Positions 1,148-62,093 of a stretch of 64,000 nucleotides of DNA are shown here, one piece after another. The position numbers were made by a program, and so were the translations under genes. The DNA lies in the IMG/VR virus record IMGVR_UViG_3300037249_001368, positions 64,001 through 128,000 of that record. One strand, written 5' to 3'. The stretch's first letter is position 1, and each line of letters starts with the position of its first letter. Source of the DNA: a virus (Duplodnaviria > Caudoviricetes). A model generated the notes under the pieces. The model searched no databases, had not been told where the DNA came from, and worked only from the letters and a program-made list of their open reading frames with translations.

Positions 1148-1172
1148 CACGAACGTCCGAAGGATGTGAGTG
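1148..1172 (+). repeat. Post-stop hairpin element, copy 1
   Basis: CAC GA ACGTCC GAA GGATGT GA GTG, 1 nt after the TGA stop; contains one G-T pair. Confidence 0.85.
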
Positions 1173-1189
1173 GTCGTAAAATCAGGAGC

Positions 1190-1531
1190 ATGAAAAGAAT
1201 ACCCGTAAATGCAGGAGAGTTAAACAACCTCCAAGGAAAGATAAACATGTATCTAAACTCAATCACCGAACGAGGCGCGGCTTTATCAGGTCAGGCTCAT
1301 TCGGATGGTTGTGTTTCAATCATAATTTCGGTATCAGGTATCCGTGGCGTCATCCAACGCACATTGGTTTTAATCAAAACCGAACAAACCGTCACCAAAG
1401 ACGGAATCACCGGTGCTGTTTGGCATGGTTACATGAACGGTGTCGGTTACGAACTCGCCACCCTGACCGAACTCAAAAACCTCATCGGTATCCAAACGAG
1501 AATGATGCGTAGCCTTGCTTTACAGCGTTGA
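1190..1531 (+). CDS. Hypothetical protein
   Basis: ORF 1133..1531; the ATG at 1190, downstream of the hairpin, is the likelier start. Confidence 0.7.
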   Translation: MKRIPVNAGELNNLQGKINMYLNSITERGAALSGQAHSDGCVSIIISVSGIRGVIQRTLVLIKTEQTVTKDGITGAVWHGYMNGVGYELATLTELKNLIGIQTRMMRSLALQR

Positions 1532-1556
1532 CACATTCTACTAAAATCATTAAGAG

Positions 1557-4500
1557 ATGCAAACACTACAAAAAGTCGAATTTGACAATCTAGCCACATT
1601 TCTGGCCACGATAAACAACAACTTTGCGATAATTCAGAACTCACCCCTGTTTAAGGGTGTTCCTGGTGAACAAGGTGAACAAGGTGAAACAGGTTCTCAA
1701 GGTGACCGTGGAACAAAGATTCTCCCTGTCATGTTTGATAAGTTCGTGGAAGTGTTTCCCGAATTACAAGGACAGTATGTTTCGGCGTTATCACCTGATT
1801 TCATCAACAGCAAGCTTCTGAATGACGACGAGAGCAATACGAACTTTAACCTCATTTGTGACGCTCTTGGTTTGGATGGAGATTCACTCATGGACGGTGA
1901 TATGCTTCTGTTTGCAACCGACTTAATGATTTATGCTTACGAAGCAAGCACCAATCAGTTGGTTGAAACAGGCATCAAGTTTGCGACAGATATCAACATT
2001 CAAGAAACTATCAACACCCTGATTGAGAACTCCATGCAGGAGTATTTGGAGCAACTGAACTCAATCAAGGTTTATCTGAAACAGTATACGACAATAGCAA
2101 GTAATGATGGCGCCACCGCAGCACCGACTGTCAGTAACGCCACGACATATTTTCCGTACATCCCGATTGGTAACATGCCCAGACAACTGGACGTGACCAA
2201 TCAGGATGTCCTTGCTATTAAGCATAAGTATTTCGGAATCGACGACGGTGAAACCAATCAGGAAAACGACTACTACACAGACAGCAGTTTTGGTGTAACA
2301 ACGGTTCTTGGTTCCATCCGCCAATACGTCAAGATTTTAAGAAATGGTACCAACCAAAACCTGTCAGGAAACATTGTGAATCCTACCAACAATCGTATGC
2401 CGTCGTTGGTTGTTATGCAAAACAGTTACGAGTCAGGCTTACTGATTGGCCACAAGAACGCTGAAAACATGTCACAATATACGGTAATGTATCGTGACAG
2501 CAACGGCAGTTTCCATATCAAGCGTGAGCACAAATGGAATCTTACTCAACAGGTGACTGAATTGGTGTTAGGTGCTGGTTTCGTGAATTGTAATAGTAAC
2601 TTCAGACTCACTGACCATGCCAACATGATTTCGGATTTCTTGACAAGTAACTATCTGCAATCAACTGTTGATTTTGGTTATGATACCAGCACATCAAAAA
2701 TCACATTCAAATCTCGTGTTCTTAATTACGCTCAGTTTACCGCTGGTAGAATCATGGAAACTGATAACCATAAGAACTTAACCACAAACAAGAGATTTGA
2801 CGTTGCTTTTGAAAGCACGCTGAACTCTTCAAATTATCAGACTAAACTGAATCAATATTTTGGTTACAACACTACAGGAACTCTGACTGATTCAGAAGCA
2901 ATAAACCTCATACCTTCCCAAAAGACAATTAAATACGTATACAAAGCCTTTGCTCATATTCTTGAAGATGTTTGGTACAAACCCGAGTACTACATTTTGA
3001 CACCAGGCTTCCAAACATTTGATAGACCGATAACCATCGACAGAATACCTTCAATGAAACTCTATAAGGATTTCATTGTTGGTTCTGACTATTTGGATGG
3101 TTATATGTACCAGTTAGAAGACCAACAAGAAGAACCTGAACAGCAAGAACGCGGTGGTGACGAAACTGGTGACGAGGGTAGGGGTATCGCCAAAACAAAG
3201 AAAACCTTCTCTCACCCGTTGGAGATTCATCTCATTAACATCGGGGCATACAACATCGGTTATGACGTAATGTTCATAGGCAGATATAATCAGGAAGGAA
3301 AACGACTCTATTCCCGATTAGACCTGCACATGGATTGGCATCAACTGATTTTGGACAAGATGGCTAAGCGTTCAGTGCTTACGGTTGGTGACAATCACAT
3401 TCTTGACGAAGATTTCCAATACGCAGATTGGACGGATTCCAAAAACGATTTCGAGTATCTTGTTCAGCAAGATGTCCACAACTGGTGGTTGAAGGACGAA
3501 AACTTTGATTTCAGGAAATACTCCAACCGCTATTGGAACGACCACACTAATTACCAAAGGGAAGGTTTCTCAGGAATCAATAACATGGGAACCGACGACC
3601 TGACACGCAGGAAGAGATTCTTGACAGGTCGTCATTTCAGGGTTATCATGGTGATTTTCAACGAGATATCCTATTGGTTCAGATATCTGCTAAATGTTCA
3701 ACAGGAAATGAACCAAACAATGCAAGAAGATTTGGTTCCTGAAGGAGCAGTGATTGCTTACAATCCTCCAATCAATATCAAGGACGGACGTGATTACAAA
3801 TACTTTACCTTGCCCGATGGATGGGTGCCGTGTTTGGGTGGTGAACTTCTCGAAAGCACGACAGCCAACCCGAGTTCTGAATCAGCCGTTGTTTGTAAGT
3901 ACGCGGTCCCCGATATGAGATGTCGCTCAATCATTGGTTATGATTGGGACCTTAATCAGTTATACAATCCTGCTGGTGACTTCTACACCAAGGCACATAT
4001 GCAACAGGGTGAAGTAGCAACATGGCACAGAACACAAGCATCAGATGGTTCTACTTTACCGTCTCTGTTATCAGCAACTAATTATTTGTCAAGAGAAGAC
4101 CCGTGGACACAACAGCACAACGCTCATAACATAGCCCTCGGTGGAACTGAGGTTGATGCCAAACTCGGTGATTATTCGAGAGAGGACGCTGAATTTAGAT
4201 TGGGTGAGAGAGATTATTTGCTTGCATATTACTCAGGCAAGGAACAAGAGATTTACGCAACATTCAATAAGTTCGCTCACATGCACCCCTTCGTGCGACT
4301 GGTCTACATTCAGAAAGCCGTCAAACCGAAGGCATCACCCAATAACTACATTTGGTATCATCTGACCGTAGGTAAGAAAGATGTGTATATCCCGATTTAC
4401 TGGCCCGATTCTAAACCATCAGTGCTCGAAGTCTATGACGCCCAGATTTATTATGGAACGGGCGGTGGAAGTGGTAGCGGAACCCACAGTATTATCGACA

Positions 4501-4736: not shown

Positions 4737-4750
4737 CCAACCTGAACCCC
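4716..4750 (+). terminator. Stem-loop overlapping the stop codon, possible terminator
   Basis: GGGGATTCAGGT...ACCTGAACCCC inverted repeat; only a weak T-tract follows. Confidence 0.4.
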
Positions 4751-4811
4751 AAATTTCCTGTTCTTTGCCTTATAATTTCAAATATATAAAAAAGAGCCAA
4801 GTCGCCCTTAT

Positions 4812-4908
4812 ATAACTTATTGATTATCAAGTAGTTATGAATTTAACACTATTTTCAAGGAGTTAAATGGATTTAGCGTTTGTAACTAATTGATTATCAA
4901 GCGTCTAC
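4812..4908. promoter_or_regulatory. Array of imperfect palindromes (TAACTnnTTGATTATCAAnnAGTTA-like)
   Basis: ATAACTTATTGATTATCAAGTAGTTAT at 4812-4838, GTAACTAATTGATTATCAAGCGTCTAC at 4882-4908, and a degenerate copy at 4841-4868. Confidence 0.6.
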
Positions 4909-5043
4909 GAAACGCTGATTTGACATGGGCTGATGCTTTTTAATGAAAATCCTATATAAGTAGTATACCGTTCGTATCGCCCTTTCATCAATCCGCGTTG
5001 AAAATAGCTCAAAATTCGGACTAATTCTTAAGTTCACCGATAA

Positions 5044-6813
5044 ATGGTTGTCACAGGCAATATAACAATTTATATCAAGGACAAGTTTGAAGATTTGTCC
5101 TTGCTTGAAGTGGAACTCACCCAACCAGAAAAAATCGAGGGGAGGGACGCTTTCACCGTTTTGTATGCTTATTCAGTTGACGGAACCAACTTTTCGGAAT
5201 ATTTACCGAAAGATGATATCCAAGCAGAGATTGATGAATTATCGTTGACGGAATTTTACATTTCTCTGAAAGTAAACAAGAACATCTTGCAAACCCACGA
5301 CGTCACCACAATTTATAAGCACGAAGACACCCTCGGAGAACGCAAACCAGACGTCAATACTGAAATCACGATAAAATACAACGGCGAGGAAGTCACAGAC
5401 CTTAAAGTCTCCTCTCTTGACGAACTAATTTCCCAGTACCCACTTTGGAATCTGAATAATAACCAAGATATAACCGTTCAGAGATGGATTGCCCAATGCA
5501 ACGCTTTTGCTGAAATGTATGGTCACTATGTGATTTATTTCAAGACACAACCAACAGAAGTGATTCATACACTGAAACATTACCACAAACGGGAAGTCGT
5601 CGACATCAAAAAGATACCACTCGTCCTCCACGGAAACGAGATTGGGAATGTTGATAAACTTGTTTATTCTGATTGGGACCTGCCACTTCAAGATGATTTC
5701 ATGGTTGATATTGTTTGGGATAAGTTCCAAACCGCATTTGGAGCAGGAACTATCCCCGCAGAAAAAGACTACATTTATTTCCCAATGCTGAACCGAATGT
5801 TTCGTATTGGTGTAGTTCAACCAGTGAATAAGTTCATGGGCAAAGTTGCTTGGTTCGAGGCTCAGTTGCTGAAATACGAGGAAGACGAAGACGTCTCAAT
5901 CAATCAGTCATTGGTTGATGATATGTCAGAAATACCCGATTTTCATGAAGCATTAAACATGGCCACAGCCGGTGATTTGCTTGATATAACTGGAACAGAT
6001 TACATTGAACAGAATCAAGGCACACCTATTGAGCAAGTCACCGAACATATTCAAACAGACTTAAACACATCAGAACGCATAGAGCAAAAGACAGTTATCG
6101 AGAAGCGTCACGCAACCGAAAACTATTCAAACAAATTGGTCGATTCCACCTCTTATATTTCATTGAAAGAGTCAGAAAAGTATCGTGAGTTTTTCGAGAA
6201 ACGTCTCGCAATCGTGAATGTGAAACCTGACGAGGAAACTTTCCTCGTCTCGATGTATGACAACAGCAAGGTGGAAAATAATGTTGTTGCCCTGCAATAC
6301 AGGATAGCCGACTTTACCAGTGTTTCTAAATTCAGTAACAACGTCAAAGAAAGTTATGAACTGAGTTTCGATTTTGTGCTGATGAAAAAGTTTGGTTCCA
6401 GTCTTATTTCTTTGATAGACGCATCGTCAGAAACTCCTGTAATCATTAACACTGTTTACACCGAGCGTGGAACTTATCCTAAACTGACATTCAGAAATGA
6501 CATCGGTCCTGAACAAGAGTCATTGACAATCAGTCACGAAATCAAAGAAAAAGAGTTATACAACCTGAGCATCAAATATGATTTACCAAACCAGCAATAC
6601 ATTTTTAAGTTGTATACCCTCCATAACAAAAAGAAGACTCCTGTCTATGAAAATATTCTGATTATTGAAAACCAACCACAAATAAATATAACAAATATAC
6701 ACCTTTTCGGAGGCAAGTTCCTGTCCTCAACGATAAAACTAATGATTGATGACAAGGAAATATTCAATGACATCTGCAGCCCTGTGCTGGTGATGAACAA
6801 CGATATCCGATAG
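5044..6813 (+). CDS. Neck/head-closure protein with a T4 gp14-like domain
   Basis: EMYGHYVIYF and PAEKDYIYFPMLNRMFRI resemble T4 gp14 PKEGDLIYFPMDNSLFEI; extra N- and C-terminal domains. Confidence 0.65.
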   Translation: MVVTGNITIYIKDKFEDLSLLEVELTQPEKIEGRDAFTVLYAYSVDGTNFSEYLPKDDIQAEIDELSLTEFYISLKVNKNILQTHDVTTIYKHEDTLGERKPDVNTEITIKYNGEEVTDLKVSSLDELISQYPLWNLNNNQDITVQRWIAQCNAFAEMYGHYVIYFKTQPTEVIHTLKHYHKREVVDIKKIPLVLHGNEIGNVDKLVYSDWDLPLQDDFMVDIVWDKFQTAFGAGTIPAEKDYIYFPMLNRMFRIGVVQPVNKFMGKVAWFEAQLLKYEEDEDVSINQSLVDDMSEIPDFHEALNMATAGDLLDITGTDYIEQNQGTPIEQVTEHIQTDLNTSERIEQKTVIEKRHATENYSNKLVDSTSYISLKESEKYREFFEKRLAIVNVKPDEETFLVSMYDNSKVENNVVALQYRIADFTSVSKFSNNVKESYELSFDFVLMKKFGSSLISLIDASSETPVIINTVYTERGTYPKLTFRNDIGPEQESLTISHEIKEKELYNLSIKYDLPNQQYIFKLYTLHNKKKTPVYENILIIENQPQINITNIHLFGGKFLSSTIKLMIDDKEIFNDICSPVLVMNNDIR

Positions 6814-6840
6814 CACGAACATCTGAAAAATGTGTTGCTA
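6811..6840 (+). repeat. Post-stop hairpin element, copy 2 (degenerate)
   Basis: TAGCAC GA ACATCT GAA AAATGT GT TGCTA; the TAG stop is in the base of the stem (TAGCA/TGCTA). Confidence 0.7.
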
Positions 6841-6888
6841 GTAACAAGGTGATTACAATTCCAAATAATTCTGAAAAGCTGATTTAAC

Positions 6889-7539: not shown

Positions 7540-7556
7540 ATTTCATAATCGGAATA

Positions 7557-7564: not shown

Positions 7565-7614
7565 CGAAGAAACATAATTTTCAACCTTAGTATAAACATC
7601 AACAACTTTTGAAA

Positions 7615-10600
7615 ATGGATATTCGTTTAAGACAAATAGTCTCAAAAGCTGCAGGTATCTATTTCATAGTCACCGACAATTCGCAGGTCAACGCGATTGA
7701 GGAAGAGAGCCGCCTCCGTGTGGTCTTCATCAACGCTCCTAAGGGACCGGTGAACTGCTTGGTGAAATTTGCGAAGGGCGATACCTCGTCGTTTACTACC
7801 ATTTTCGGCAAAGCCAATCGTAGTAAAGAAAAGAAGGGTGACTTCGGTCACAAAGTTTGCTTAGATGCTCTGTCCTCAGGCCCGCTCGGCGTTATCAATT
7901 TGAGAGTTTTTGATGATGAACAGGATACGACTCAGGTCGCTACCATCAATCCTAACACCTGCTTCGACAGTGGCGTGAGGGTTGACAAAGTCCCGTATTC
8001 ATCGCTCTTCAACAAAAACGGCTATTGGACTCCTGACAGAGACATCTTAACAGAGAAGTATTACGAAAACGATGGTTACCTGAACTTCGGTAATGTCGGC
8101 AACAGTGACGTCTCTGTATTCGTCGTCAAAGCCAAGGAAAGCGAGGTTTCTCAGCTCACCGAAGAGTACAACAAGACTCTTGAAGAGTGCGCCCTCGAAA
8201 TCGACGACTATCCGAATCTTGACTTCAACACACGCCTGTCTGACACTTTCGTCAAGGTGTATGTGTTCAACAACACTTTTGAAGGAGCACATCTGAACGC
8301 CACCTACGGTCAGTACTTCGAGTCCGATGACAGCATCACACAAGAAAACCTCGAGGCTCTGACGAAAGTCGCCGGCGTTGGTTTCATTGACTCTTACGTT
8401 GGTTCGGTGATTCCTGGTTTGGTTTCTGAAACCAGCGAAAACTTGAGCATCGACGATATCATGTATGCTAACTACATTTACACTGGTATCATCTGCGACA
8501 TCAACAACGAGTTGCTCGAAGCCACCAACACCAAGGACTTCTCGATGATTGACCTTTACGGTTTCAATTCCATGTTCGAGGAAGGTGAGTTCAAAACCAT
8601 CAGCAATTTGATGTCTTACAAAGACAACAAGTTGACCTTCGACAAAGACAGTGTGGTTCCGAAACAACCCACCAACTTGGATGAGAACAAAGCCATCACT
8701 TGCAAAAATGCTCTGAAGTACGGTGTGTTTGAGGACACCAGTCTCACAAACAACACCTTCAAGACCAACACGGGCACGGGTATCCGCTTCGATGACCTCA
8801 TCATCGGTGAGGACAGACTCCTTCACATCACCGACATCGAACTCGACGAGCCCATCAGTGAGGCAAAGACTTACGACATTTTCGCCTCGACTGGTGAAGG
8901 CCGTGACGTGACGAAAGCCATTGTGGTTGACACACAGGGTGGTGTCTTCTACAACATCAACGGTTATAAGTGGGAAACCTCAACCGACGGCGTCAACTGG
9001 AAGATTATCGACCTCGACTTCTTCCATACTCCGACTGGTAAGGTTCTGACCTACGAAAACAACTTCGGAAACGCTGTCACCTACGGCACTGCAGTTTACG
9101 CTGTTGCTTACTGCTCTGATGAATCAGTCAATTATCTCGTGAAGTATCAATCAGGTGAAATCACCATGAAGAAACTCGGTACGACTGGTACATCTGACGT
9201 CAACATCGTGGTCAATGGTAACATCTTCGTTGTTTACGGTGGTCTTGGTGTCATGTATTCTACTGATGGTGAGAACTGGTTCGCCGCTGCTGACCAACAC
9301 CTGAACTACATCACCAGTGGCTTCGGTACTCAGTACAGATTCTTCGCCTACTGCAATCCTGGTTCCTTCACCGACGGCTTCGCCGAAGGTTTTGAAGAGG
9401 GTGACTTCTTACTGAAGTATTCCAGCGATGGTCAGAACTGGCAAGAGCTCGGATGCAACTATACGTCTTTGACTGGTTTGGACATCACCAAAAACAAGAA
9501 CCTCATCCTTTGGGACGACGTGAATGTTTATATGTTCACCACCGGTAAAGCTTACTACATCGCAAAGACCGACCTCGGTAATGCCGAAAAGAGCTTCACC
9601 GAAAAGACCGTCGAAGTTGCAAGCACCGCTTTCTATCCGACAATCGTGAAAGAAACCCAAGCCAATACAGTCTTCGCTATCGCCGGCGGTGCTACCAAGC
9701 AAATCACCTTCAGCAAGGGTGAGACTCCCGCTTTCACCGCTGAAGCAATTTCAGGTATGAACAACGCCACGAGATTGTACTTTGCAAAGAACAACAAGTT
9801 GGCTTTCTTCGTTGGCGGAGATTCCGATACCAACATCTACCAAACTTGGGATGCTACTAACGTGGGTGAAGGCAACTTCACTATGCCTTACATCCTTGAG
9901 TATCAAACGGCTACTTATACCGTCGACGGTAAACTCTATGTTGGTGGTGAAACCAATGCCAAGTATATCATCAAGGTTAATCCTTACGTGAATCAACCGA
10001 GCGCAATCCTGAACAACAACGTCATTCAGTCGTACAAACTGAGCGAGCGTCAGTTCATCAACGGTACCTCCTCACGTCAGAGCGAAATCCTTGACATGAT
10101 TATGGACCCGTCCATCCGTAAGGGTTTGAAGAACACCCGTGGCTTGCGTTACCTGATTGACGCCTTCAAGTCGTACGTGGAACCTGATTACAAGAAGCAG
10201 TTCAGTGACCTCGTTCTTGACTTGCATGAGAACAACAGATTCGTGACTTGTATCATGACTGAGCCTTTCATGAAGGACATCAAGAAATCGACCAACCCGC
10301 TGTTCAAGGACACTCCGTCATCCGACGTTGTCAACTACGAGTATTTCGCCACCGGCGGTAACAAACAATACTCAACCAAGCTATTGAGCAAAGTTGACAA
10401 TCAGTTCCTGTTCTTCTTCGGTCCTGGTGACGTTGAGAACGGTGTCGTGAAACCTTTGACTGGTTTGATTTCAAACAACTTCTACACCAAGCAGAATCAG
10501 TTTGACATCATCGCCAATACCACTGGTTACGTCCAAGGCATCAACGAACTTGAGGAGCAAATCGACGACAACGACCGTAAGTACCTCGAAAAGTTCCGTT

Positions 10601-12224: not shown

Positions 12225-12836
12225 ATGGCTACTGCTGAATCAATATTCCCGCACGTCGTACAGAGCACTGCAGCGGTGAACAGGTATGAACCTGTTGTAC
12301 CGTCCAACTTCAACGCTCAGTTCATTCTCGAGGGTTATTTGAAGGAGAAGTTAGGCGACTACTCGTTCCTGAAGGAATACGTGAAAGCCGTCAACGGTCT
12401 GTTCGTGGAGTACGCCGGCAACACCATCGAAGCCGGTTACAAGACCACGAGATTCAGATACGACTCCAACGATAAGCAGACCTACTACGAAATCGAGGTC
12501 CAGTTCTGGAACTTCTTGGACAACGAAAGTAAACAGTATGTCTACAACGCCCTCGTTGCTTGGTCCCGCATTAAGTATAATCCGCTGACTGGCGAAAAGA
12601 CCATGAAACGCGATTACGCTGATGCCTCGATTGTCGCCGAGAAATTCAACCGTGACGGTACCATCTTCTGGAGACGTATCGCTCATAATGTCTTCCCGTC
12701 CAGTGACATCGGTGACCAAGGCGCTGATTACGCTTCGCACGACCCCGTTGAGTTGACCATCACTTTCAACGCCGACTATGTTTCAGACGTCACCAACGAC
12801 CCACGTCTTGTTGACAGTCAGACTGGAACATTCTAA
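12225..12836 (+). CDS. Tail tube protein (gp19-like)
   Basis: 203 aa; YNPLTGEKTMKRDYA...NRDG...NVFP...LTITFNADY is the typical tube pattern; downstream of the sheath gene. Confidence 0.85.
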   Translation: MATAESIFPHVVQSTAAVNRYEPVVPSNFNAQFILEGYLKEKLGDYSFLKEYVKAVNGLFVEYAGNTIEAGYKTTRFRYDSNDKQTYYEIEVQFWNFLDNESKQYVYNALVAWSRIKYNPLTGEKTMKRDYADASIVAEKFNRDGTIFWRRIAHNVFPSSDIGDQGADYASHDPVELTITFNADYVSDVTNDPRLVDSQTGTF

Positions 12837-12865
12837 CACGAACATTTGAAAAATGTGAGTGTTAG
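12833..12865 (+). repeat. Post-stop hairpin element, copy 3
   Basis: CTAACAC GA ACATTT GAA AAATGT GA GTGTTAG; perfect 7+6 bp stems with the TAA stop inside the stem. Confidence 0.9.
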
Positions 12866-12932: not shown

Positions 12933-12966
12933 GAAAACACCCGTCGTGAGATGGGTGTTTTCTTTT
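12933..12966 (+). terminator. Rho-independent terminator
   Basis: GAAAACACCCGTC-GTGA-GATGGGTGTTTTC followed by TTTT. Confidence 0.8.
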
Positions 12967-13006
12967 GATTAACACCGTTAATAAATAGTCATTAAAACAT
13001 TTCACA

Positions 13007-19896: not shown

Positions 19897-19957
19897 ACCT
19901 GTCAGAAAAAATAAATTATCAGGCTAATAAATATTTCAATCATAGTTACAATTAGAG

Positions 19958-20323
19958 ATGGTACCGTTATTCGAGGAAGATAATTTTAGTGTTAAGATTA
20001 AGAAAATCAGAGACGTCTATGCAAAAAAGCGCGACGCCCTGAAAGAATCAAAGGAAAAGAAACTTGAGAATCTTCGCAATCAACGTGACCAGAAACTTGA
20101 GAACACTCACGGTCACCTCGAAAAAGCAAAAATCCGTTCAGACTTTGCTAAGAAGAGTGACCAGTTGAATTACAAAACAGAGGTCGAGATTGACAAGTTC
20201 AGAAAACAGCGGGACGAGGCGATTAAGAAAATCAAAGAACAACGTGAGAAACTGAAAGTTGTCAACAAAACCACAAAAACCGTCAAAGAAAAATCTACAA
20301 CCAAATCTAACACAACCAGATAG
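19958..20323 (+). CDS. Basic Lys-rich coiled-coil protein
   Basis: 121 aa; preceded by TAATAAATA (19925-19933). Confidence 0.7.
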   Translation: MVPLFEEDNFSVKIKKIRDVYAKKRDALKESKEKKLENLRNQRDQKLENTHGHLEKAKIRSDFAKKSDQLNYKTEVEIDKFRKQRDEAIKKIKEQREKLKVVNKTTKTVKEKSTTKSNTTR

Positions 20324-20348
20324 CACGAACATCCGAAGGATGTGAGTG
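20321..20348 (+). repeat. Post-stop hairpin element, copy 4
   Basis: TAG CAC GA ACATCC GAA GGATGT GA GTG. Confidence 0.9.
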
Positions 20349-20366
20349 GTAAAAATTTTATTTTCC

Positions 20367-20870: not shown

Positions 20871-22634
20871 ATGAAGCTAAACACAGGACTAAACATATTG
20901 TATGGCAAGAACCTCGACGCCAAGATTTCTAAGAAAATCTTGTACGCGAACACCAATGGTAAGTTACAGAACCAAAAAGTTCTGAATAAAGCCGTTGGTA
21001 TTCCGAGCGACCCGTTGTATTTGAACAACAACGATATGTTCTATGCCAGCTACAATCCTGACATCAGATACAGAAACTATTTCCAGTTCTCGTCATTAGC
21101 AAACATTGAGTATCGTAATGCGTTACTCCTGTTTGCTGAAAACAAGAAAATCAAAAAGGCCGTGAAAATCATGGCTGATGAAATGGTTGTTGTTGATAGT
21201 GATGCTCAGCGTTATCCTGTTCAGCCAGATATCAACATCACCAAACTGGAAACAGATAAGCAGAAAGTTGGTACCGCAATCGTTGATTATCTTGACAATG
21301 TCTTTTATCCGAAACTTTGGAGAATGTACGACTTCGACAGTTTCGGTGATGGTGGCATAATTGATATGTTGAAAGAGTTCCTTATCACAGGAAAACTGGC
21401 ATGGGAAATAATTTATGACAGTATCAAGAACCCCAAAGACATTATTGGTTTGCAACCGTTAGACCCAACCACGTTACAGAAATACAAGGTTGGTGATGAC
21501 ATATATTACGTTCAGAGAACAGTGTTTGATGGACGTGAAAGAATCCTCCACGAAAACCAAGTAATCTTGGTTGAGTGGAATAAGTATGACTTCGGGTATG
21601 TTTCTTATGTTGACGGTCTACGACTGTCATACAACATAATGAACTCCATGAACACCTCCAAAGCGTTATGGTTTGCAGCAAAATCCCAAGTGAGGATGCA
21701 CATCAGATTAGCGCTTGGTGACGTGTCAAGGGACGAAGCCGAACAAAGACTTTCTGAAGCCGCTCAGCGCTATACGAACAACTTTAAGTTCAGCGAGGAT
21801 GGTGTGGTTCTGTTTAACAACCAACCAAACAATTCAGGCTACAGAGAGTTCTTTACTGGTGAAACATCTGTATCAGGTCATCCTGAAATCGAGGAAGTAA
21901 ACGCCAACGGTCCCGACTTAACCGAAACAGATTCATTATCCTATTGGGAGAAACTCTATTGGGAAGATACGGGAATACCGTTTGACAGAATCGACCCTAA
22001 CAACAGTGATAACTGGGGGTTCCTCGACGTAGAATCACTCAAGAAAACCGAAATCATTTTCGCCAAGGACGTAGAAGCCATTCGACGTATGTTGAATGAC
22101 ATTTGGATGAAACCAATCATCATTCAACTAACACTGAAAGAGGTAGAAATTGGAATTGACCTCAGCCTGTTGGATTCAATCGAACTGAAATGGGCATCGT
22201 ACAACCAGTACGAAAAGATGGCAGACTTAGGAATCCTTGAAAAGAAAGTAGGTATCGCACAGAACATCAAGGACTTTGGTACCACCATGAACGCCGCCGA
22301 TAAGGAAGTCCCGTTCTTCTCGGTCAACTGGCTCACCCGAAACATTTTGGGTTACGACGAAGCCACAATCAAACTCATCAAAGAAGCCAGACGTCTCGAA
22401 TACGAAGAACTTGGTTTCGACGAGAACGGTTGTCCTAAGAAGGAATTTGTTGACGCGAGCATGGGTTCGTTAGGCGACATGGGATTGGGTGACATGGGTG
22501 GCGGTAGTGGTGATTTGGATGACCTGTACGGTGGTTCCCCAGAAGACGAAGAACCAGAAAATTCATCCGATGACGAGGAACATTTCGTCGAAGATGAAGA
22601 AGCAATTTCTGATTCGGATGATTCACAGCTTTGA
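20871..22634 (+). CDS. Portal protein (gp20-like)
   Basis: IIGLQPLDP, YWEKLYWEDTGIPFDRI, KTEIIFAKDV and FSVNWLTRNILG follow the T4 gp20 pattern; acidic C-terminal tail. Confidence 0.85.
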   Translation: MKLNTGLNILYGKNLDAKISKKILYANTNGKLQNQKVLNKAVGIPSDPLYLNNNDMFYASYNPDIRYRNYFQFSSLANIEYRNALLLFAENKKIKKAVKIMADEMVVVDSDAQRYPVQPDINITKLETDKQKVGTAIVDYLDNVFYPKLWRMYDFDSFGDGGIIDMLKEFLITGKLAWEIIYDSIKNPKDIIGLQPLDPTTLQKYKVGDDIYYVQRTVFDGRERILHENQVILVEWNKYDFGYVSYVDGLRLSYNIMNSMNTSKALWFAAKSQVRMHIRLALGDVSRDEAEQRLSEAAQRYTNNFKFSEDGVVLFNNQPNNSGYREFFTGETSVSGHPEIEEVNANGPDLTETDSLSYWEKLYWEDTGIPFDRIDPNNSDNWGFLDVESLKKTEIIFAKDVEAIRRMLNDIWMKPIIIQLTLKEVEIGIDLSLLDSIELKWASYNQYEKMADLGILEKKVGIAQNIKDFGTTMNAADKEVPFFSVNWLTRNILGYDEATIKLIKEARRLEYEELGFDENGCPKKEFVDASMGSLGDMGLGDMGGGSGDLDDLYGGSPEDEEPENSSDDEEHFVEDEEAISDSDDSQL

Positions 22635-22660
22635 CACAAACATCTAAAATGTGAGTGTCA
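22632..22660 (+). repeat. Post-stop hairpin element, copy 5
   Basis: TGACAC AA ACAT CTAAA ATGT GA GTGTCA; the TGA stop pairs with the terminal TCA. Confidence 0.75.
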
Positions 22661-22688
22661 GTAATTAATACATAGAAAATACAAAACC

Positions 22689-25439: not shown

Positions 25440-26474
25440 ATGGGAAAAATATCCAACAAATTCTTATACGTCGAGTCACCGCAAATCCCCCTGATTTCGG
25501 TAGACTATGCGGATATCAAAAAGGAAACTATCGACCCGACCACGGGTAAGCCATACAAGGGGATAATTCTTTTTGGTGAGTTCGCCGACCTGAGCAACGA
25601 GACTCTGAACAACAACAAGCGCATTTATGATGTTCCGTTGTATCTTCAGTTGCTTGGTGACTTACGAAAGAAAATCCACGAGAAGAAGGGAGTCTACGGT
25701 GAACTTGAACACCCCAATAGTTACGCAGTAAACTACAAGATGGTGTCCCATAAAATCTTGGATGTGTACTACGACGAGAAAACCAAAAAGGTTATGGGTT
25801 ATGTTCTGTTGCTGAATACTCCTGAAGGAAAGAAAGCTCAGGAAGTGGTTAAGAGTGGTGGCTGCTTGGCTATTTCAGGAAGAGCCGCTGGTGAAGAGAT
25901 TGCTCAATCCGACGGTTCATTCTTGGCAAAAGTCAAATTGCTCACCACCTATGATTTAGTATATCATCCTGGTTTTTCATCCGCTGTCTTAGACTTCAAA
26001 GAACTTAACGAGTCCTACAACTTTGGTCGTCAATCAGACTACCAACACAATCCTTACTCATGCATCATCACCGAAAATCAACTAAGAGCTATACATGAAT
26101 CATACAATCAGTTCAGGGCTCAGATTTCAGGAATGGATACATTGAACGAGTGTTTCTTGGGTTGGTATAGTAATCTTAACGAAGACCAAAAACCTTCCCA
26201 ACAGCAGAAACAGCAACAGGAAAAGTTGCAAGACTCCGAACAACCAAAAGAGGAAAAATACCAACAGAAGTTGGAGAGGGCCGCTGACCAAGACCTCTCA
26301 GAGAAACATAAGAAACGTTATATGCAAATCCTGAGACGCAATCAGAGAACGACAACTCGTAATCTGAAAAACCTGTCTAAGATTGGAAATGCTGTTTACG
26401 ACAATTCGGCTGGATTTCTGAGTGATGGTTTGGCTGGCCTGCCTAACACTACCAGTGTAGCCACGGGCGTCTGA
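25440..26474 (+). CDS. Prohead core protease (gp21-like)
   Basis: NNNKRIY, YGELEHP, VSHKI, LNTPEG, LAISGRAAG and TYDLVYHPGFSSA are canonical gp21 motifs. Confidence 0.9.
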   Translation: MGKISNKFLYVESPQIPLISVDYADIKKETIDPTTGKPYKGIILFGEFADLSNETLNNNKRIYDVPLYLQLLGDLRKKIHEKKGVYGELEHPNSYAVNYKMVSHKILDVYYDEKTKKVMGYVLLLNTPEGKKAQEVVKSGGCLAISGRAAGEEIAQSDGSFLAKVKLLTTYDLVYHPGFSSAVLDFKELNESYNFGRQSDYQHNPYSCIITENQLRAIHESYNQFRAQISGMDTLNECFLGWYSNLNEDQKPSQQQKQQQEKLQDSEQPKEEKYQQKLERAADQDLSEKHKKRYMQILRRNQRTTTRNLKNLSKIGNAVYDNSAGFLSDGLAGLPNTTSVATGV

Positions 26475-27307: not shown

Positions 27308-29161
27308 ATGTTTGAAATTAAAAGAGACAGGATTTACAAACACACGCATCTGAAGCAAGAGGATGCAGACCGTTTGCGTCCCCTGATGGAAAACGCCTTC
27401 CGTGATGAACTTTCTCGCTATGACGGCCGTCCCGCACTGAGGGAAGAGAAACTCCGTTTCATCACCGAACAATACGCCAACCGTTGCCGTGTGTCTTCGG
27501 CTGTGGGTCAATCGCCCCTGCACGAGGATGCCAAAATCTTCGGTGGTCTCGATGGTAGTCTTACCAACCTCTTTGAGTCTGTCAGCGCTCCTGGTAACAT
27601 CATTAATATGGGTAACGTTCGCAACCCCATGAACGGAACCGACGTCGATGGTGGTATTTGGAACCCTGGTTACAAGAGAGGCACTGGTGACATTCCTTCG
27701 TATGTCTTCGGCCTTCAAAGCCACATCGCCCTCCACTGCATCGGCTTCGACCTGATTCCTACGATTTCGGTCGATACTCCGAAGCCCGTCGTGAGTTACG
27801 TGGACATCGTCTACGGTGGTGGTACCCTCGCCGACAGTGAGAATCTTCCTTCGTACCTCGAGTTTGCCAGCAGCTTGTTCACCAAATCTTGGGTGACCAC
27901 TCACAACCTCGTTCGCGCTACGACTGAAGTCTACATCGTCGCCGACACCGCCTCCGCAAAGAAAGCTCTGAAGCTCCGCTTCCACAGCGGTTCTACGGTT
28001 CGCGCCGCCATCAACGCCGAAGTGCTCGCCACTGGTGTTATGACGACCCTGCCCGTTGACGCTACCAGCAAGGGTGCTTATACTTGGGACAACAGCTGCA
28101 GCGTTAAGGACGTCCTTGACCTCGTTGCTGACACCACCAAGTCGCACATCGTGTCTATCGAAGGTGCCGCTGCTACTGACACCTACGTCGAAGCCATCAC
28201 CGAGCTCTACGCCAACTATCTGTCCGCTACCCGTACCAACATCGCCGAGGCCACCTCGAACAACAACAGCTTCGGTGGTATGACCCGTGAGCAAATGGAG
28301 AAGGGTCCCGTCCACAAGCTGAACGTCGTGACTATGGACGAGCAACTCGACATCGTCGGTATTGAAATCGAGGCCGACACCACGAATATCCAAATCAAGG
28401 ATATGGCTGCTATGGGTGTCCAAGTCATTTCTTACCTGTACACCGGTGTCCAAAACGCTCTGGTCCAATCCCTCGACGAGTTCATCCTCGACCACCTGTA
28501 CGCAATGGGTGTCACTGCCGCCGTCAATGCTTATCAGTCTCAAGGTATCAACCACAGCCTGTACATTGACAACCCGAGCAACACCACATATGCCATGAGC
28601 GGTTATCCTTATCCGTTCAAGGACGTCCTCGGTCGTGACCGTCGTGCTGAGATGGGTACTATCACCAACGCTATGGTGACTACTGGTTACGAGAACCAGA
28701 TGACTCACAACGAGCGTCTGTATCGTCGTATCCTCCTCATCGCTGAGTACATCGAGCAACAGACCCGTATCGCTCCCGCTGACATGCTTGTCGCTGGTGG
28801 AGAACTTTGCGCCGCCATCAAGGCTCACAGCTCCTTCACTACCAGCCCCACCCCGAACACCATGACTCAAAGCCCTGGTATCCAATACTACGGCACCATC
28901 TACCAGACCATCAACGTCTTCAAGAATCCGAAGTGCGACTTCAACGATTCTCGTATCTTGGTCTTCCGTCGTGGTGATGACAAGGACACTGGTTCTAAGC
29001 TGTTGGCCTACGACCTGGCTGCAAGCCGTCAAATCGTCGCCGAGCAAACGATGGCTGAGAAAATCCGTGTGTGGTCTCGCTTCAAGATTGCCGACATCGG
29101 CTTCTATCCTGAGCTCAACTACTACACGATGGTTGCCATCAACACCTACAAGTTCATCTAA
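27308..29161 (+). CDS. Major capsid protein (gp23-like)
   Basis: 617 aa after protease and scaffold; strongest codon bias; IGFDLIPTISV and KIRVWSRFKIADIGFYPE fit large-myovirus capsid patterns; followed by a terminator. Confidence 0.85.
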   Translation: MFEIKRDRIYKHTHLKQEDADRLRPLMENAFRDELSRYDGRPALREEKLRFITEQYANRCRVSSAVGQSPLHEDAKIFGGLDGSLTNLFESVSAPGNIINMGNVRNPMNGTDVDGGIWNPGYKRGTGDIPSYVFGLQSHIALHCIGFDLIPTISVDTPKPVVSYVDIVYGGGTLADSENLPSYLEFASSLFTKSWVTTHNLVRATTEVYIVADTASAKKALKLRFHSGSTVRAAINAEVLATGVMTTLPVDATSKGAYTWDNSCSVKDVLDLVADTTKSHIVSIEGAAATDTYVEAITELYANYLSATRTNIAEATSNNNSFGGMTREQMEKGPVHKLNVVTMDEQLDIVGIEIEADTTNIQIKDMAAMGVQVISYLYTGVQNALVQSLDEFILDHLYAMGVTAAVNAYQSQGINHSLYIDNPSNTTYAMSGYPYPFKDVLGRDRRAEMGTITNAMVTTGYENQMTHNERLYRRILLIAEYIEQQTRIAPADMLVAGGELCAAIKAHSSFTTSPTPNTMTQSPGIQYYGTIYQTINVFKNPKCDFNDSRILVFRRGDDKDTGSKLLAYDLAASRQIVAEQTMAEKIRVWSRFKIADIGFYPELNYYTMVAINTYKFI

Positions 29162-39604: not shown

Positions 39605-39675
39605 TGCCTGATGGTGTAATGGCAGCACGACAGATTTTGGTTCTGTTTGTGGAGGTTCGAATCCTCCTCGGGCAA
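39605..39675 (+). tRNA. tRNA-Gln (anticodon UUG), no encoded CCA
   Basis: Acceptor TGCCTGA/TCGGGCA, D-arm GTGTAATGGCAGCAC, anticodon arm ACAGA-TTTTGGT-TCTGT, T-arm GGAGG-TTCGAAT-CCTCC. Confidence 0.95.
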
Positions 39676-39682
39676 CGTTTTT

Positions 39683-40074: not shown

Positions 40075-41637
40075 ATGCTTATAGATTTCATACAAAACCA
40101 AAACTCTGTTGAATTTAGTTATGTAAATAACAAGGGTTATATCGAAGTCGAGGAACTGTTTATGGAGCCAAACTCTCCAAACGGTTTTTATCAGATAATG
40201 GAGACAACCGAGGACGACCCCGATAAACTACAGAACTTATCTTCATTCAGAGGAAGTCCGTTGAAAAAGGAAATAGCCAAGTCCTTCAGAAAACTTAATC
40301 AGAACGAGTTCATCAATGTAACACTCAAGGAACTTAATCCAGAGCTTTATGAAAAGATTAATTGGTTGAGAGAGCCAAAAATCTATTCAATCGACATTGA
40401 AACACAAATCACTGACGAGTATGGATATTCTGATGAAGACCATGCAGATAACGAGATTATTTCCATTTCGATAACCAATGAAAATCTGAATACGATTCTA
40501 TTCATTGTCAAGAATCCTAAGGAACCGCTTAAGGAACTTCCGATAAAGAGCAAAAACTACATTGAGTCTTTGTTAGAAGCTCAACTAGGAAAATACTACA
40601 ACATGGCTGGTCCTAATCAGAACCAACCTTGTGCTTTTTCGATACAGGAATTTGATACTGAAGCGGATATGTTGGTTGCGTTTGTCGCAGCAGTCCAAAA
40701 ATATTTCCACATGATTATTGGTTGGAATATTTTTGGTTATGACTTGAAATACATTTTTAAGCGCTGTGATAAGTTAGGTATTGATTACAAGAAAATGAGT
40801 CCTGTCAATGCCTTAGCACCTGAGAAGAAGTCAATCAACTTGGCACTCGAAGTTCCGCTGAAATATCCAAGACACAGATTAGCAGCAGATTATATGAGGA
40901 TATTCAAGGCATCTGAAACTTTCAGAAACCTTGATTCATATTCTCTCGATAATGTTTCCCACGTAGTTCTTGAATTGGGAAAGGTAACTTACGAAGGGAA
41001 TCTACGAAAGTTATATGAAGATGATTATCTTAAGTTTGTTGCTTATGCGTTGGTTGATACCATATTGGTAATGCTGCTTCATCTACAAACAAATCTTCTC
41101 AGCACATATTTCTTCCAAAGTTATTATAACTCATTGCCTTATATGCGTCTCAATCAAAATCCTATATCTGAGGCGTTGATTTACAGGGAATTGAGGAGAA
41201 AGAATTTGTTCATTGTAGAATCAGAGTATCCCAAAAAGGTTTATAACTCATATCCAGGAGGTTTTGTAAAACTTCCAACCGTCCACGAAGTGTTAGCAGC
41301 TATGGGTATTGACTTTAACTCACTGTACCCAAATGCTATGATTAGTTGTTATCTTTCGTTTGACAACAAGTTTGATGACACAATTAAGATGGATGAGTTT
41401 GGTAAACCAATCAATGAGTTTAACCGAGCAAAGTTTGAGAAGTATAAATCTATGGGCTACTGTATAACCCCGATGGGAAGAATTTACAAAGCAGATGAAA
41501 ATAATATATACACCCAAATAGAAAAAAATCTTCTTGCCGAGCGTAAAATCTACAAAAAAGCGAAGGAGGATATTTACATGAATATTATACCTTCGATTGA
41601 GGCAGAGATTGAAAGAAGAAAGACATTAAAAGTTTAA
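40075..41637 (+). CDS. Family B DNA polymerase, N-terminal part (exonuclease plus palm motif A; gp43A-like)
   Basis: ExoI SIDIET, ExoII GWNIFGYD, SYSLDNVS, ExoIII YALVD, YPGGFV, motif A DFNSLYPN; ends after ERKIYKK. Confidence 0.9.
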   Translation: MLIDFIQNQNSVEFSYVNNKGYIEVEELFMEPNSPNGFYQIMETTEDDPDKLQNLSSFRGSPLKKEIAKSFRKLNQNEFINVTLKELNPELYEKINWLREPKIYSIDIETQITDEYGYSDEDHADNEIISISITNENLNTILFIVKNPKEPLKELPIKSKNYIESLLEAQLGKYYNMAGPNQNQPCAFSIQEFDTEADMLVAFVAAVQKYFHMIIGWNIFGYDLKYIFKRCDKLGIDYKKMSPVNALAPEKKSINLALEVPLKYPRHRLAADYMRIFKASETFRNLDSYSLDNVSHVVLELGKVTYEGNLRKLYEDDYLKFVAYALVDTILVMLLHLQTNLLSTYFFQSYYNSLPYMRLNQNPISEALIYRELRRKNLFIVESEYPKKVYNSYPGGFVKLPTVHEVLAAMGIDFNSLYPNAMISCYLSFDNKFDDTIKMDEFGKPINEFNRAKFEKYKSMGYCITPMGRIYKADENNIYTQIEKNLLAERKIYKKAKEDIYMNIIPSIEAEIERRKTLKV

Positions 41638-56311: not shown

Positions 56312-56312
56312 G

Positions 56313-57152: not shown

Positions 57153-57164
57153 AACTAAAATATC

Positions 57165-57350: not shown

Positions 57351-57362
57351 AATGTACCGCCT

Positions 57363-58159: not shown

Positions 58160-58188
58160 AAATCATTACTCCTAAATAATATTCAATA

Positions 58189-59730: not shown

Positions 59731-59747
59731 GGTGTCGGTCATGTTGG

Positions 59748-59783
59748 TCCCTCCGATGGCGCAAAACGTCGGAGGGATTTTTT
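59748..59783 (+). terminator. Rho-independent terminator
   Basis: TCCCTCCGATG-GCGCAAAA-CGTCGGAGGGA followed by TTTTTT. Confidence 0.85.
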
Positions 59784-59819
59784 ATACATAGATACTTTGC
59801 AACAAAAAATTTCTAGGTT

Positions 59820-60677
59820 ATGTCAATATCGAAGTTCAAGGATTTTATCAAGAGATGTGTAACAGTTGTTGCGTCAAGAGAGTTTGCATTTATTTACTGC
59901 CTTTTAGGAACCTTTGGTGAAGTAGCGCATTGTTATTTTCTATTAGATTCAGTATCATCATTTAATGGTTTCTTCAAACATTTCCAAGCAGGGGTATTAT
60001 CATTATTCATATCTTCGTCACTGATGTATTTCGTTTCCATCTCGGATTCAAGTGATGAAGAAACAGAACAGAAGCGTATCAGAAGAGCAGTAAACCTGTT
60101 CATGGTTATGGAAATACTCATGAACATGTATTACTATTGTCAGCACCTTATCATAAAAGCAGAAACCATGAGGTTGTTTGATTTCATCTTCGGTACCGTA
60201 ATTTCATGTCTGATTCCTGTAACTATTAAATTGTACTCGAACTCCATTAAAGCCAAACAATGGATTAATGAAATCGAAAGTCAGCAATCGAATGACACTG
60301 AAAATGTAAATCAGCCTAATTCATCCCAAGAACCTGGTTTATCAAAAAGTGATGTCCAAGAAATTGTAAATGTCACAGTCCAAGAAAAAATCAAAGAAGT
60401 TGAGATACCAATTAACAAAGAACAAGTCCAAAAAACAATAGATGAGGTTTTAGATGAAAGATTAAAAGAAAAGACCGCTGAAGATGGGTATTCTGTTGAT
60501 GACTTATTGTTTGAAAGCAAGTTGAAAGCCATTGTCGAGGAGAAAGTCAATGAAGCATTGAGACAGAACCCAGACGTAAAAACAAAGGAACTTCTTAAGA
60601 GTCTCGTAATCGAACAGTTTGAGAAAATACAAAAATCCAACGAAGAATATATCGACAAAAAACTTGAAGAAAAATGA
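59820..60677 (+). CDS. Membrane protein (about 4 TM) with a coiled-coil tail
   Basis: Hydrophobic N-terminal half, charged C-terminal half. Confidence 0.7.
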   Translation: MSISKFKDFIKRCVTVVASREFAFIYCLLGTFGEVAHCYFLLDSVSSFNGFFKHFQAGVLSLFISSSLMYFVSISDSSDEETEQKRIRRAVNLFMVMEILMNMYYYCQHLIIKAETMRLFDFIFGTVISCLIPVTIKLYSNSIKAKQWINEIESQQSNDTENVNQPNSSQEPGLSKSDVQEIVNVTVQEKIKEVEIPINKEQVQKTIDEVLDERLKEKTAEDGYSVDDLLFESKLKAIVEEKVNEALRQNPDVKTKELLKSLVIEQFEKIQKSNEEYIDKKLEEK

Positions 60678-61624
60678 GCAACACCACACTTCTTGAAAAA
60701 TATGCTCCACGTGATTGGGATACTATAATCATTCCAGAGAAAGTTAAAAGTTCTTTGATGAACATAATTCAACAGAAAGGTTATCGTGTCCTGTTCTACG
60801 GTTCTCCCGGGAATGGGAAGACCAGTAGTTCTAAGATAATGTCAATGGGCGACAACGTCCTTTATTTATCAGGTTCCAACGATTTCAATGTCGAAACCTT
60901 GAGAAGTAAAGTAACTCCGTTTGCATCAGGCATGGCAGTTAAGGGTGTTACCAAAACCGTAATCATCGACGAGTTTGAAAACATCAGGGATAACGTCCAA
61001 GATGCTTTCAAAATTATCCTTGACAAGTGCAAAAACACCAACTTCATATTTTGCACCAATGAAGTTGAGAAAGTAAATTCTGCATTAAGAAGCCGTTGCA
61101 CCCAATTTGATTACGATTTTGTGTCATCAAATCTTGAGGAGCACAAGCGTAATTACATCAAATGGTTGGTCAACATCGTTAAAGACATAGCCGCTGAGTA
61201 TAAAATCAAAGCCACGAAAGAGGGCATCAATCTGCTTGTCAAGAACAATTTCCCCGACTTCAGACATACGCTCGTAACATTACAACAGGTCATTGATTCG
61301 GGGTCAGATATCACGGAAGAAGCCATTGCTTCCTGCTCAGATAACACCAAACAAATCGTGGAGTTATATGAGTTAGTCATGAACAATGCAGCATCAGGCG
61401 AAAAATTCTATCAAGAAGCCTGTGCATACAAATCACGTGAAAGGGAATGTTTGATGGCTTTGGGTGAGCCATTCTTCAAGTACTTAAATGACAACGGTCG
61501 TTGGGAGCAAGTCATTCCCGCAGCAGTGATTGTTGCCAAGTATTGCGACAACTACAACATGTCAATAAACAAGTTCGTGAGTTTTGTTTCTTGCATCAGC
61601 GAGTTAAAGACATTATTCAGATGA
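60674..61624 (+). CDS. Clamp loader large subunit (gp44/RFC-like AAA+)
   Basis: LEKYAP, Walker A GSPGNGKT, Walker B VIIDE, SRC motif ALRSRC, FPDFR. Confidence 0.9.
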   Translation: MSNTTLLEKYAPRDWDTIIIPEKVKSSLMNIIQQKGYRVLFYGSPGNGKTSSSKIMSMGDNVLYLSGSNDFNVETLRSKVTPFASGMAVKGVTKTVIIDEFENIRDNVQDAFKIILDKCKNTNFIFCTNEVEKVNSALRSRCTQFDYDFVSSNLEEHKRNYIKWLVNIVKDIAAEYKIKATKEGINLLVKNNFPDFRHTLVTLQQVIDSGSDITEEAIASCSDNTKQIVELYELVMNNAASGEKFYQEACAYKSRERECLMALGEPFFKYLNDNGRWEQVIPAAVIVAKYCDNYNMSINKFVSFVSCISELKTLFR

Positions 61625-62073
61625 ATTGTTTCTTTCATATTTTCTTATCGAGGGTCGCAACCCAAAATTCTTACATCAGGGATTGTGTTGCTTGGATAGA
61701 CCAAAACATCAAAGGCAACTTCCCATACAAGATTTACTTCTCTGATAAAAGATTAAATCTAAAGGACTTCAATGCCAATCTTAAGCCAGCCAATACCAAC
61801 ATCATTATGTGGGATTCTATGCTGGTAAAAGAAAACTTTGAAATTACGGAGTTGGGCGACGTCAATGTAATTTTTCTGAAGCACAAAACAGAAATTTTCA
61901 AAAACACTAAATCCAAAAACGAGGCGGTTGATGAAAATTTTCTGTTGTTCAATGGTTTCAAATGTGTGTATCTAAACCCCGATAAGAACGAAACGAATTA
62001 TCAATACGACACCATAATTTCCGAGGACAAATACATTTTTGATTTGTCGAAGTATACAAACAATAAAGCATGA
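61621..62073 (+). CDS. Hypothetical protein
   Basis: ATG at 61621 overlaps the gp44-like stop (ATGA). Confidence 0.7.
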   Translation: MNCFFHIFLSRVATQNSYIRDCVAWIDQNIKGNFPYKIYFSDKRLNLKDFNANLKPANTNIIMWDSMLVKENFEITELGDVNVIFLKHKTEIFKNTKSKNEAVDENFLLFNGFKCVYLNPDKNETNYQYDTIISEDKYIFDLSKYTNNKA

Positions 62074-62093
62074 ACATCTGAAAGATGTGAGTG
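62069..62093 (+). repeat. Post-stop hairpin element, copy 6
   Basis: CAT GA ACATCT GAA AGATGT GA GTG; the TGA stop (62071-62073) lies inside the element. Confidence 0.85.

Follow-up and report, generated by a model that had tools for sequence, protein, structure and literature searches.

The DNA analysed here is a window of 64,000 nucleotides, bases 64,001 to 128,000 of the 178,153-base IMG/VR virus record IMGVR_UViG_3300037249_001368 (Duplodnaviria; Caudoviricetes; CheckV completeness 77%), and the element under study is a family of short hairpins with a tandem G.A mismatch that lie between the genes of this phage. The genes follow the T4 order, with a portal gene (Portal_T4) and a neck gene (T4_neck-protein), then a prohead protease (S77) and a gp23-like capsid gene. 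Coding sequence makes up 93% of the record, and 184 of the 207 called genes, including every gene that adjoins a hairpin copy, are on the + strand. Shine-Dalgarno (SD)-like tetramers were found upstream of six of the 182 ATG starts of + strand genes (3%, versus a background of 11%), and the gene leaders are G-poor, with 55–68% A at positions −14 to −11. Given the small number of SD-like tetramers and the A-rich block, a Bacteroidota host fits, and the virus is a T4-like rumen phage, probably of Bacteroidota.

A covariance model (R1) was built from an alignment (A1) of 14 hairpin copies, and looser pattern searches were also run. Scanning the whole record with R1 recovered 15 copies, all on the + strand and scoring 28–51 bits, with the next match at 15 bits; every copy is non-coding and 31–35 nt long. 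Six of them fall within the window (38.6–51.4 bits, E 2e-9 to 2e-13), at the places and on the strand given for six copies in the original prediction, the full outer stems now extending their spans, and nine lie beyond it, with starts at record positions 25808, 29003, 51315, 53632, 56186, 56543, 61176, 154498, and 161197. A loose pattern for the inner stem gave nine matches where 2.7 were expected, a number that none of 100 shuffles reached.

The window copies, all given here in window coordinates and on the + strand, each lie at the end of a gene. Copy c07 (1144..1176) begins at the TGA that ends a 1298-aa gene and stops 13 nt short of the next ATG, and it scores 48.3 bits with a minimum free energy (MFE) of −14.9 kcal/mol (z −4.5). 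Copy c08 (6810..6841), placed after the neck protein gene (PF11649, phrog_679) and its TAG stop, has a degenerate 3′ side and reaches 39.2 bits, with an MFE of −5.9 kcal/mol and a z-score of −1.9, while the other five window copies have z-scores of −3.3 to −5.6. The best copy, c09 (12833..12865; 51.4 bits, z −5.6), holds the TAA stop of a 203-aa gene within a 7-bp outer stem (CTAACAC/GTGTTAG). Copy c10 (20320..20352; 49.1 bits) comes after a 121-aa gene that ends in TAG, with 14 nt left to the next ATG, and c11 (22631..22661; 38.6 bits), in which the first G of the 5′ GA is replaced by A, follows the TGA stop of the portal gene (PF07230). In c12 (62065..62097; 44.4 bits), the stop of the 150-aa upstream open reading frame (ORF) is the TGA of caTGAac, which overlaps the closing U.G pair and the GA mismatch.

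ViennaRNA assigned the same fold to every copy: an outer stem of 6–7 bp, a 2 × 2 internal loop of GA/GA, an inner stem of 4–7 bp, and a loop of 3–7 nt, for a consensus of TAGCAC-GA-ACRTCC-GAA-GGATGT-GA-GTGCTA (about 33 nt) whose helix comprises 13 Watson-Crick or wobble pairs plus two G.A pairs. Standard pairs occupy 90% of the cells, both sides change in eight of the 13 pairs (nine of the 13 once relatives are added, for a total of 20 copies), and the observed covariation score was reached by none of 500 shuffles, slid registers being only 23–50% paired; the inner-stem covariation that had been read from the window thus stands. The GA/GA loop, first credited to the four best copies, is retained more widely, in 12 of the 15. 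Four basal and two apical pairs vary freely and covary, the apical ones as CC/GG, CT/AG, and TT/AA, with a wobble intermediate (CT/GG) in one relative, and the outer stem as CAC/GTG versus CGC/GCG. The centre of the hairpin is fixed over 9 + 9 nt (5′ C-R-C, G-A, A-C-R-U; 3′ A-U-G-U, G-A, G-Y-G), and this constancy between freely varying basal and apical pairs argues that selection acts on the sequence and not only on the pairing. Neighbouring copies share subtypes, with ACRT-TTTA-ATGT at 25–51 kb and ACGTCC-GAA-GGATGT at 53–65 kb, which fits local duplication or gene conversion.

The strand on which the structure forms can be read from its mismatches. At inner pair 12–24, a G.U replaces A-U in seven of 19 distinct copies and an A.C occurs once, and the + strand folds at −12 to −15 kcal/mol versus −6 to −10 for its complement (c07, −14.9 versus −6.2). 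The tolerance of G.U, the near absence of A.C, and the markedly weaker folding of the complement show that what folds is the single-stranded + strand, as had been proposed; and given the strand of the genes, above all of those that adjoin the copies, that strand is mRNA. A symmetric double-stranded DNA operator, which the original prediction had also set aside, is ruled out, since the two arms do not complement each other at the GA positions. The family is, then, one of sense-strand hairpins selected both for pairing and for a fixed core.

Stop codons are part of this structure to varying degrees. Measured from the first base of the true ORF stop to the G of GAAC, the stop is at −6 in six copies, where TAA, TAG, or TGA is followed by CRC, at −7, −10, −15, −16, and −19 in one further copy each, and at −1 in two copies whose closing pair is U.G and whose stop is the TGA of caTGAac. 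Copy c02 lies 61 nt past the called stop, and c00, which lies in a divergent 5′ region, sits 20 nt before the first gene of the + strand block and has no upstream ORF. The anchoring of the hairpins at stop codons, as initially described, therefore holds at one fixed position for six copies and loosens in the remainder, from −1 to −19 and beyond. A stop-like triplet also occupies −6/−7 in copies where it does not terminate the ORF (c00, c01, c02, and the second of two tandem copies in the relative L155), so the triplet is part of the element rather than the product of a stem adapting to a pre-existing stop. Their settings differ: c09 and c13 precede classical terminators, c07, c10, and c12 separate co-transcribed genes, c06 and c11 are followed by late-promoter-like motifs, and c00 belongs to a 5′ leader; the distance to the next start ranges from 12 to 147 nt. 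The sole factor common to all of these contexts is transcribed non-coding RNA, usually directly behind a cistron.

Six junctions, those of c06 to c11, were compared with near relatives, for which syntenic loci (L152 to L155, L157, and L158) were taken from the same 90% portal and neck clusters; flanking nucleotide identity to this phage is 91–98% for L154 and L158, 75–90% for L152 and L153/L155, and 50–82% for the further locus L131. All six junctions are polymorphic for presence and absence of the hairpin between relatives whose flanks are 75–98% identical. Copy c06 is absent from L158 and is represented by two tandem copies in L155; c07 is shared with L158 and is absent from L155 and L157, where the genes overlap as ATGA; the degenerate c08 is absent from L158 and L155; and c09 is absent from L155, L157, L153, and L131. 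Copy c10 is found in this phage only, being absent from L154, L152, L153, and L131, the last three of which have an ATGA overlap in its place, and c11 has orthologous copies in L154 and L152 and is absent from L153 and L131. Hairpin-free junctions have either an ATGA overlap (c07, c10) or genes 12–27 nt apart (c11). Across the same 39 kb, this phage carries six copies, versus a single locus in the L153/L155 phage.

The alleles at these junctions show how the copies come and go. At the c11 site, L153 reads CTT-TAA-TAAATAG, with the stop inside a late-promoter motif, and L152 has 34 extra bases between CTT and TAATAAATAG, made up of a TGA in frame, a complete hairpin, and the tail GTAAT; the C-terminus of the portal protein stays as it was. 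At c06 in L155 and at c08 in this phage, a new unit lies directly before the pre-existing TAG, so that this triplet now forms the end of the 3′ arm. Relics remain in L154 at c10 (TAGCGCG plus the same spacer) and in L155 at c07 (GCACGAAC fused to ATGA), and the retention of 5′-arm pieces in these two hairpin-free alleles suggests deletions besides gains; a direct repeat of AGCGC in both arms of the CGC/GCG outer stem would favour deletion by slippage. By manual count, this phage and L152 share about 91% identity over the hairpin-plus-promoter cassette of c11, compared to 76% identity over the upstream coding DNA, which points to constraint or recent exchange. The hairpins therefore enter and leave junctions as cassettes with a built-in stop, turning over rapidly between close relatives, and they often provide the upstream gene with its in-frame stop and separate genes that in relatives are adjacent or overlapping; copies are also duplicated locally, and some have been lost by deletion, with relics as the trace. 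The earlier view that the hairpins are not mobile cassettes, which had been argued from their position behind core genes, is not supported, as every junction compared is polymorphic and the insertions bring their own stop.

Beyond these relatives the family was not encountered. Among Rfam 15 families, only a tRNA reaches its gathering score in this DNA and nothing covers the hairpins even at E ≤ 10. A strict 23-nt motif had no match in IMG/VR viral contigs, four chance-like matches without outer stems in JGI metagenomes, and one match in 185,579 prokaryote species genomes. More than 117 matches to a loose motif in viral contigs look like chance once scored with the model (best, 24.9 bits), and the best of them (L036) is antisense within a 930-aa ORF of an unrelated contig. 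No copy was found in five related phage records with portal identities of 51–56%, which were scanned whole, or in about 21 kb around the portal gene of relatives with 83%, 62%, and 59% portal identity, and 9 kb taken from the window had no megablast match in the phage collection. The family is confined to one narrow phage lineage, and a host-borne repeat family of the same sequence is unlikely.

Several known RNA elements were considered and set aside. A kink-turn is ruled out by the symmetric 2 × 2 loop, which has no 3-nt bulge, and no L7Ae gene was found in the 77%-complete record. Hammerhead ribozymes, group II intron domain 5, boxB/nut sites, selenocysteine insertion sequence (SECIS) elements, and gene-60-type bypass were dropped by eye, as their core motifs or contexts are missing; read-through frames end within 9–16 codons. 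A likeness to an extended SD sequence (AAGGAUGUGA) was also dropped, since only copies of the CC/GG subtype contain AAGGA and this phage makes no use of SD sequences.

Closer parallels are found among hairpins that lie at the ends of bacterial and phage genes. Repetitive extragenic palindromic (REP) elements of Enterobacteria and Pseudomonas are imperfect palindromes, about 35 nt long, that lie in transcribed extragenic regions and often within a few nucleotides of a stop; their core is conserved, their stems covary, their presence varies between close strains, and they stabilise mRNA 3′ ends. In phage T7, the RNase III sites (R0.3, R0.5, R1, R1.1, R1.3, and others) are intercistronic sense hairpins with a conserved internal loop, which leave a protective 3′ hairpin on the upstream message. 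The intercistronic C(UUCG)G hairpins of T4 and the “hairpin rule” of Mimivirus likewise place very stable hairpins behind viral genes, where they are linked to the formation or stability of message ends; we know of no report of presence/absence dynamics for these viral hairpins. The family described here resembles REP elements in consisting of transcribed extragenic palindromes within a range of 20–40 nt (here 31–35 nt) with a conserved core and covarying stems, and differs from them in being a phage element with 15 copies rather than hundreds, in one orientation, without the pairs of bacterial interspersed mosaic elements (BIMEs), without a GTAG/CGTC head (the 5′ ends here are TAGCAC, TGACAC, TAACAC, CCAGCAC, and similar), without a REP-associated tyrosine transposase (RAYT) gene found in the record, and with a fixed tandem G.A loop and a built-in stop triplet. 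Like the T7 sites, it places hairpins with an internal loop between the cistrons of a polycistronic sense transcript; however, those sites are longer (two helices, about 20 bp or more), with asymmetric loops and fixed junctions, whereas the present hairpin has a short helix of 13 pairs plus two G.A, and its copies are polymorphic. Unlike this family, the T4 and Mimivirus hairpins are defined by loop type or palindromy and share no core sequence. A survey of REP elements has been published (PMC3733652).

A further comparison is with the promoter early stem-loops (PeSLs) of the T4-type phages RB49 and phi1, which are repeated regulatory cassettes between an upstream stop and the next gene, tied to insertions and deletions between close relatives, that combine a strong sigma70 promoter with a G/C-tract stem-loop terminator and occur mostly in hyperplastic regions beside ORFans (PMC2839356). 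The hairpins of this phage are likewise small repeated cassettes of a T4-type phage at gaps between a stop and the next gene, with presence differing between relatives. They have a fixed GA core, no polyG or polyC, and many copies in the virion module, and assignment to the PeSLs is ruled out by the definition of those elements as a sigma70 promoter plus a G/C-tract stem-loop (PMC2839356).

What we have found is a young, lineage-restricted family of hairpin cassettes, each composed of a stop-initiated outer stem, a fixed 2 × 2 loop, an inner stem, and a free loop. By analogy with REP elements, T7 RNase III sites, and T4 intercistronic hairpins, we tentatively favour, with confidence somewhat short of even, the reading that these are REP-like cassettes kept as mRNA hairpins that protect or mark the 3′ end of the upstream cistron. 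The element would work as a folded piece of phage mRNA: the hairpin would form in the immediate wake of the terminating ribosome, where the upstream cistron has its 3′ end, and would act as a barrier to 3′-to-5′ decay, as a mark for endonucleolytic processing, or as both. The fixed core could be the contact surface for a candidate RNase or other protein, or it could instead keep a long stable helix from being treated as perfect double-stranded RNA. Several observations weigh against such a role. Each copy is dispensable in some near relative, so that any function must be modest or redundant, and c08 and the first L155 copy are decaying; the fixed GA core is not explained by hairpin stability alone, and the helix is shorter than classical RNase III substrates. 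The product of the 121-aa gene that precedes c10 was found only on two long DNA contigs and on no metatranscriptome contig, and no gene for RNase III, a double-stranded RNA-binding domain (dsRBD) protein, or L7Ae was found in this 77%-complete record, about a quarter of the genome being missing.

The same dynamics could be those of a selfish mini-palindrome, akin to REP elements or to miniature inverted-repeat transposable elements (MITEs), that is read as single-stranded DNA by a transposase or nuclease or spreads by T4-type recombination or template switching, in which case any effect on RNA would be incidental and the position and orientation of the copies would reflect tolerated insertions only. 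This we regard as unlikely on balance, albeit the strongest of the alternatives. It draws on the polymorphism of all six junctions between such similar flanks and the contrast of six copies with one locus in the L153/L155 phage, on the tandem pair in L155, the relics in L154 and L155, the degenerate copies and the subtypes shared by neighbours, and on the built-in stop triplet and the absence of the family beyond the lineage. Yet neither a Y1/HUH transposase (PF01797, E ≤ 0.1) nor a TnpB or GIY-YIG gene was found in the record at its 77% completeness, and the outer stems differ between copies, which therefore have no fixed ends. No target-site duplication is seen: non-TA flanks are complementary (GA..TC, TG..CA, CCAG..CTGG) and not direct repeats, which rules out a TA-duplicating MITE of the IS630/Tc1-like kind, and TA..TA flanks are ambiguous in this respect, TA being self-complementary. 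The Correia elements of Neisseria, which are MITEs, are non-autonomous inverted repeats at gene boundaries that fold as RNA and affect message processing; these are 100–155 bp long, with 26-bp terminal repeats and a TA duplication, whereas the phage unit is about 30 nt with complementary rather than duplicated flanks. Compensatory changes, moreover, indicate selection after insertion, and the orientation is 15:0 with transcription. A role in mRNA and a selfish origin are in any case mutually compatible, as they are for bacterial REPs.

The position of the stop inside the 5′ arm, fixed at −6 in six copies, together with the fixed core sequence, could instead indicate a specific binding site for a protein of the phage or of its host whose target is the terminating ribosome or the start downstream, for example by stalling at the stop with rescue by transfer-messenger RNA (tmRNA) or by uncoupling formerly overlapping genes in a host that does not use SD sequences. 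REPs within 15 nt of a stop reportedly induce ribosome stalling. The phage itself encodes a permuted tmRNA, and the SD-poor, A-rich leaders and the ATGA overlaps of relatives at c07 and c10 also suit this interpretation. Against it stand the variable position of the stop (−1, −6, −7, −10 to −19, and 61 nt), the lack of an upstream ORF at c00, and the 12–147 nt range of distances to the next start, and no candidate protein was identified; we think it improbable. The tmRNA was called by ARAGORN, beyond the window, at L007:9908-10239 (record positions 9908–10239), with the tag peptide GNNYEMRAAA*. Genes for tRNA-Phe, Ala, Lys, and Met were also called beyond the window, and one for tRNA-Gln (anticodon TTG) was called within it, at 39605–39676, by both ARAGORN and Rfam; the record as a whole yielded no suppressor tRNA.

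The copies at gene ends also raise the possibility of a terminator or attenuator without a U-tract, intrinsic or factor-dependent, that insulates late transcription units. In support of this, c06 and c11 are just upstream of late-promoter-like motifs, and a T-rich stretch lies behind c05. The motif concerned, TAATA[AC]ATA, occurs 21 times on the + strand versus twice on the − strand and is kept in relatives, the sites compared being about 12–40 nt ahead of gene starts; from its resemblance to the T4 late promoter TATAAATA, it is probably the late promoter of the lineage. Its positions in the window include 12979, 19925, 22666, 25411, 36178, 44672, and 53158. Late-promoter-like sequences on the + strand stand ahead of a 628-aa gene (TTAATAAATAG, 12978..12988, conserved in L131), ahead of the 121-aa gene that ends in c10 (TAATAAATA, 19925..19933), and directly behind c11 (TTAATACATAG, 22665..22675), with the same motif behind c06. 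By reading of the tails, a promoter-like motif follows five of the 15 copies, of the late type (TAATACATA) after c06 and c11 and as TATA-rich stretches after c01, c03, and c14, and none of these overlaps the stem.

A classical intrinsic terminator, on the other hand, takes the form of a G+C-rich stem followed by a T run, and such terminators occur both in this phage and in its relatives. The separate terminator that the original prediction had reported about 70 nt past c09 is real, with a 13-bp stem on the + strand (12933..12972; hairpin 12933–12962 plus T run), and it is conserved in L131 and L155. No hairpin copy was flagged in a terminator scan, and none has a T-tract, in keeping with the earlier remark on the missing U-tract, the tails being A-rich or mixed. 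With no hairpin-plus-T-run in any copy, an intrinsic (Rho-independent) terminator is ruled out, and since c09 and c13 each have a classical terminator 50–70 nt further on, the GA hairpins are not the terminators. Several copies also lie 12–21 nt before a gene without its own promoter. Termination of any kind is for these reasons quite doubtful. A signal carried by the + strand as DNA, for replication, packaging, or recombination (a primase, helicase-loading, or nuclease site), would suit a strand-specific structure, and GNA triloops and tandem G.A pairs are also stable in single-stranded DNA, but it is the least probable reading by our estimate, as the copies track gene boundaries and not replication landmarks, G.T wobbles are frequent, near relatives do without individual copies, and no HUH enzyme was found in the 77%-complete record.

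Other sequences in the record resemble parts of the element. At record positions 159048–159074, a perfect hairpin (CAATGAACATCTGAAGGATGTTCATTG) has the inner stem and GAA loop of the family without the GA mismatch, and R1 scores it at 12.9 bits. A string like the 3′ arm (GTGAGTGCT), followed by a TATAAT/TATAAA box, occurs after c01 and at two sites that have no full hairpin (record positions 25771–25786, 29022–29040, and 40930–40950 for the string plus box), and the latter two may be half-relics joined to a −10-like box. The junction behind the portal gene (window 22689 onward; L152:11826, L154:3522, L131:11771) is a hotspot for accessory genes: in relatives, one or two additional genes (175, 191, or 199 aa) separate the portal gene from the 180-aa gene.

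It is conceivable, although we judge it unlikely, that a proliferating palindrome of about 30 nt that carries its own stop invades the gene junctions of this phage, splits coupled or overlapping genes, and leaves an RNA hairpin behind. If this were so, the family would represent a mobile element of a new class, more compact than all MITEs and REPINs described so far and lacking a recognisable transposase, in which an ultra-small palindrome possibly spreads through template switching or recombination of the T4 type. Near-identical phage genomes in which a copy is present, absent, duplicated, or relic at the same junction constitute a natural experiment, one that addresses both how such an element spreads and how it affects the expression of the flanking genes in a host that does not rely on SD sequences. 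If the fixed G.A core is a recognition site, it would point to a new RNase or RNA-binding protein, belonging either to rumen Bacteroidota or to the phages that infect them.

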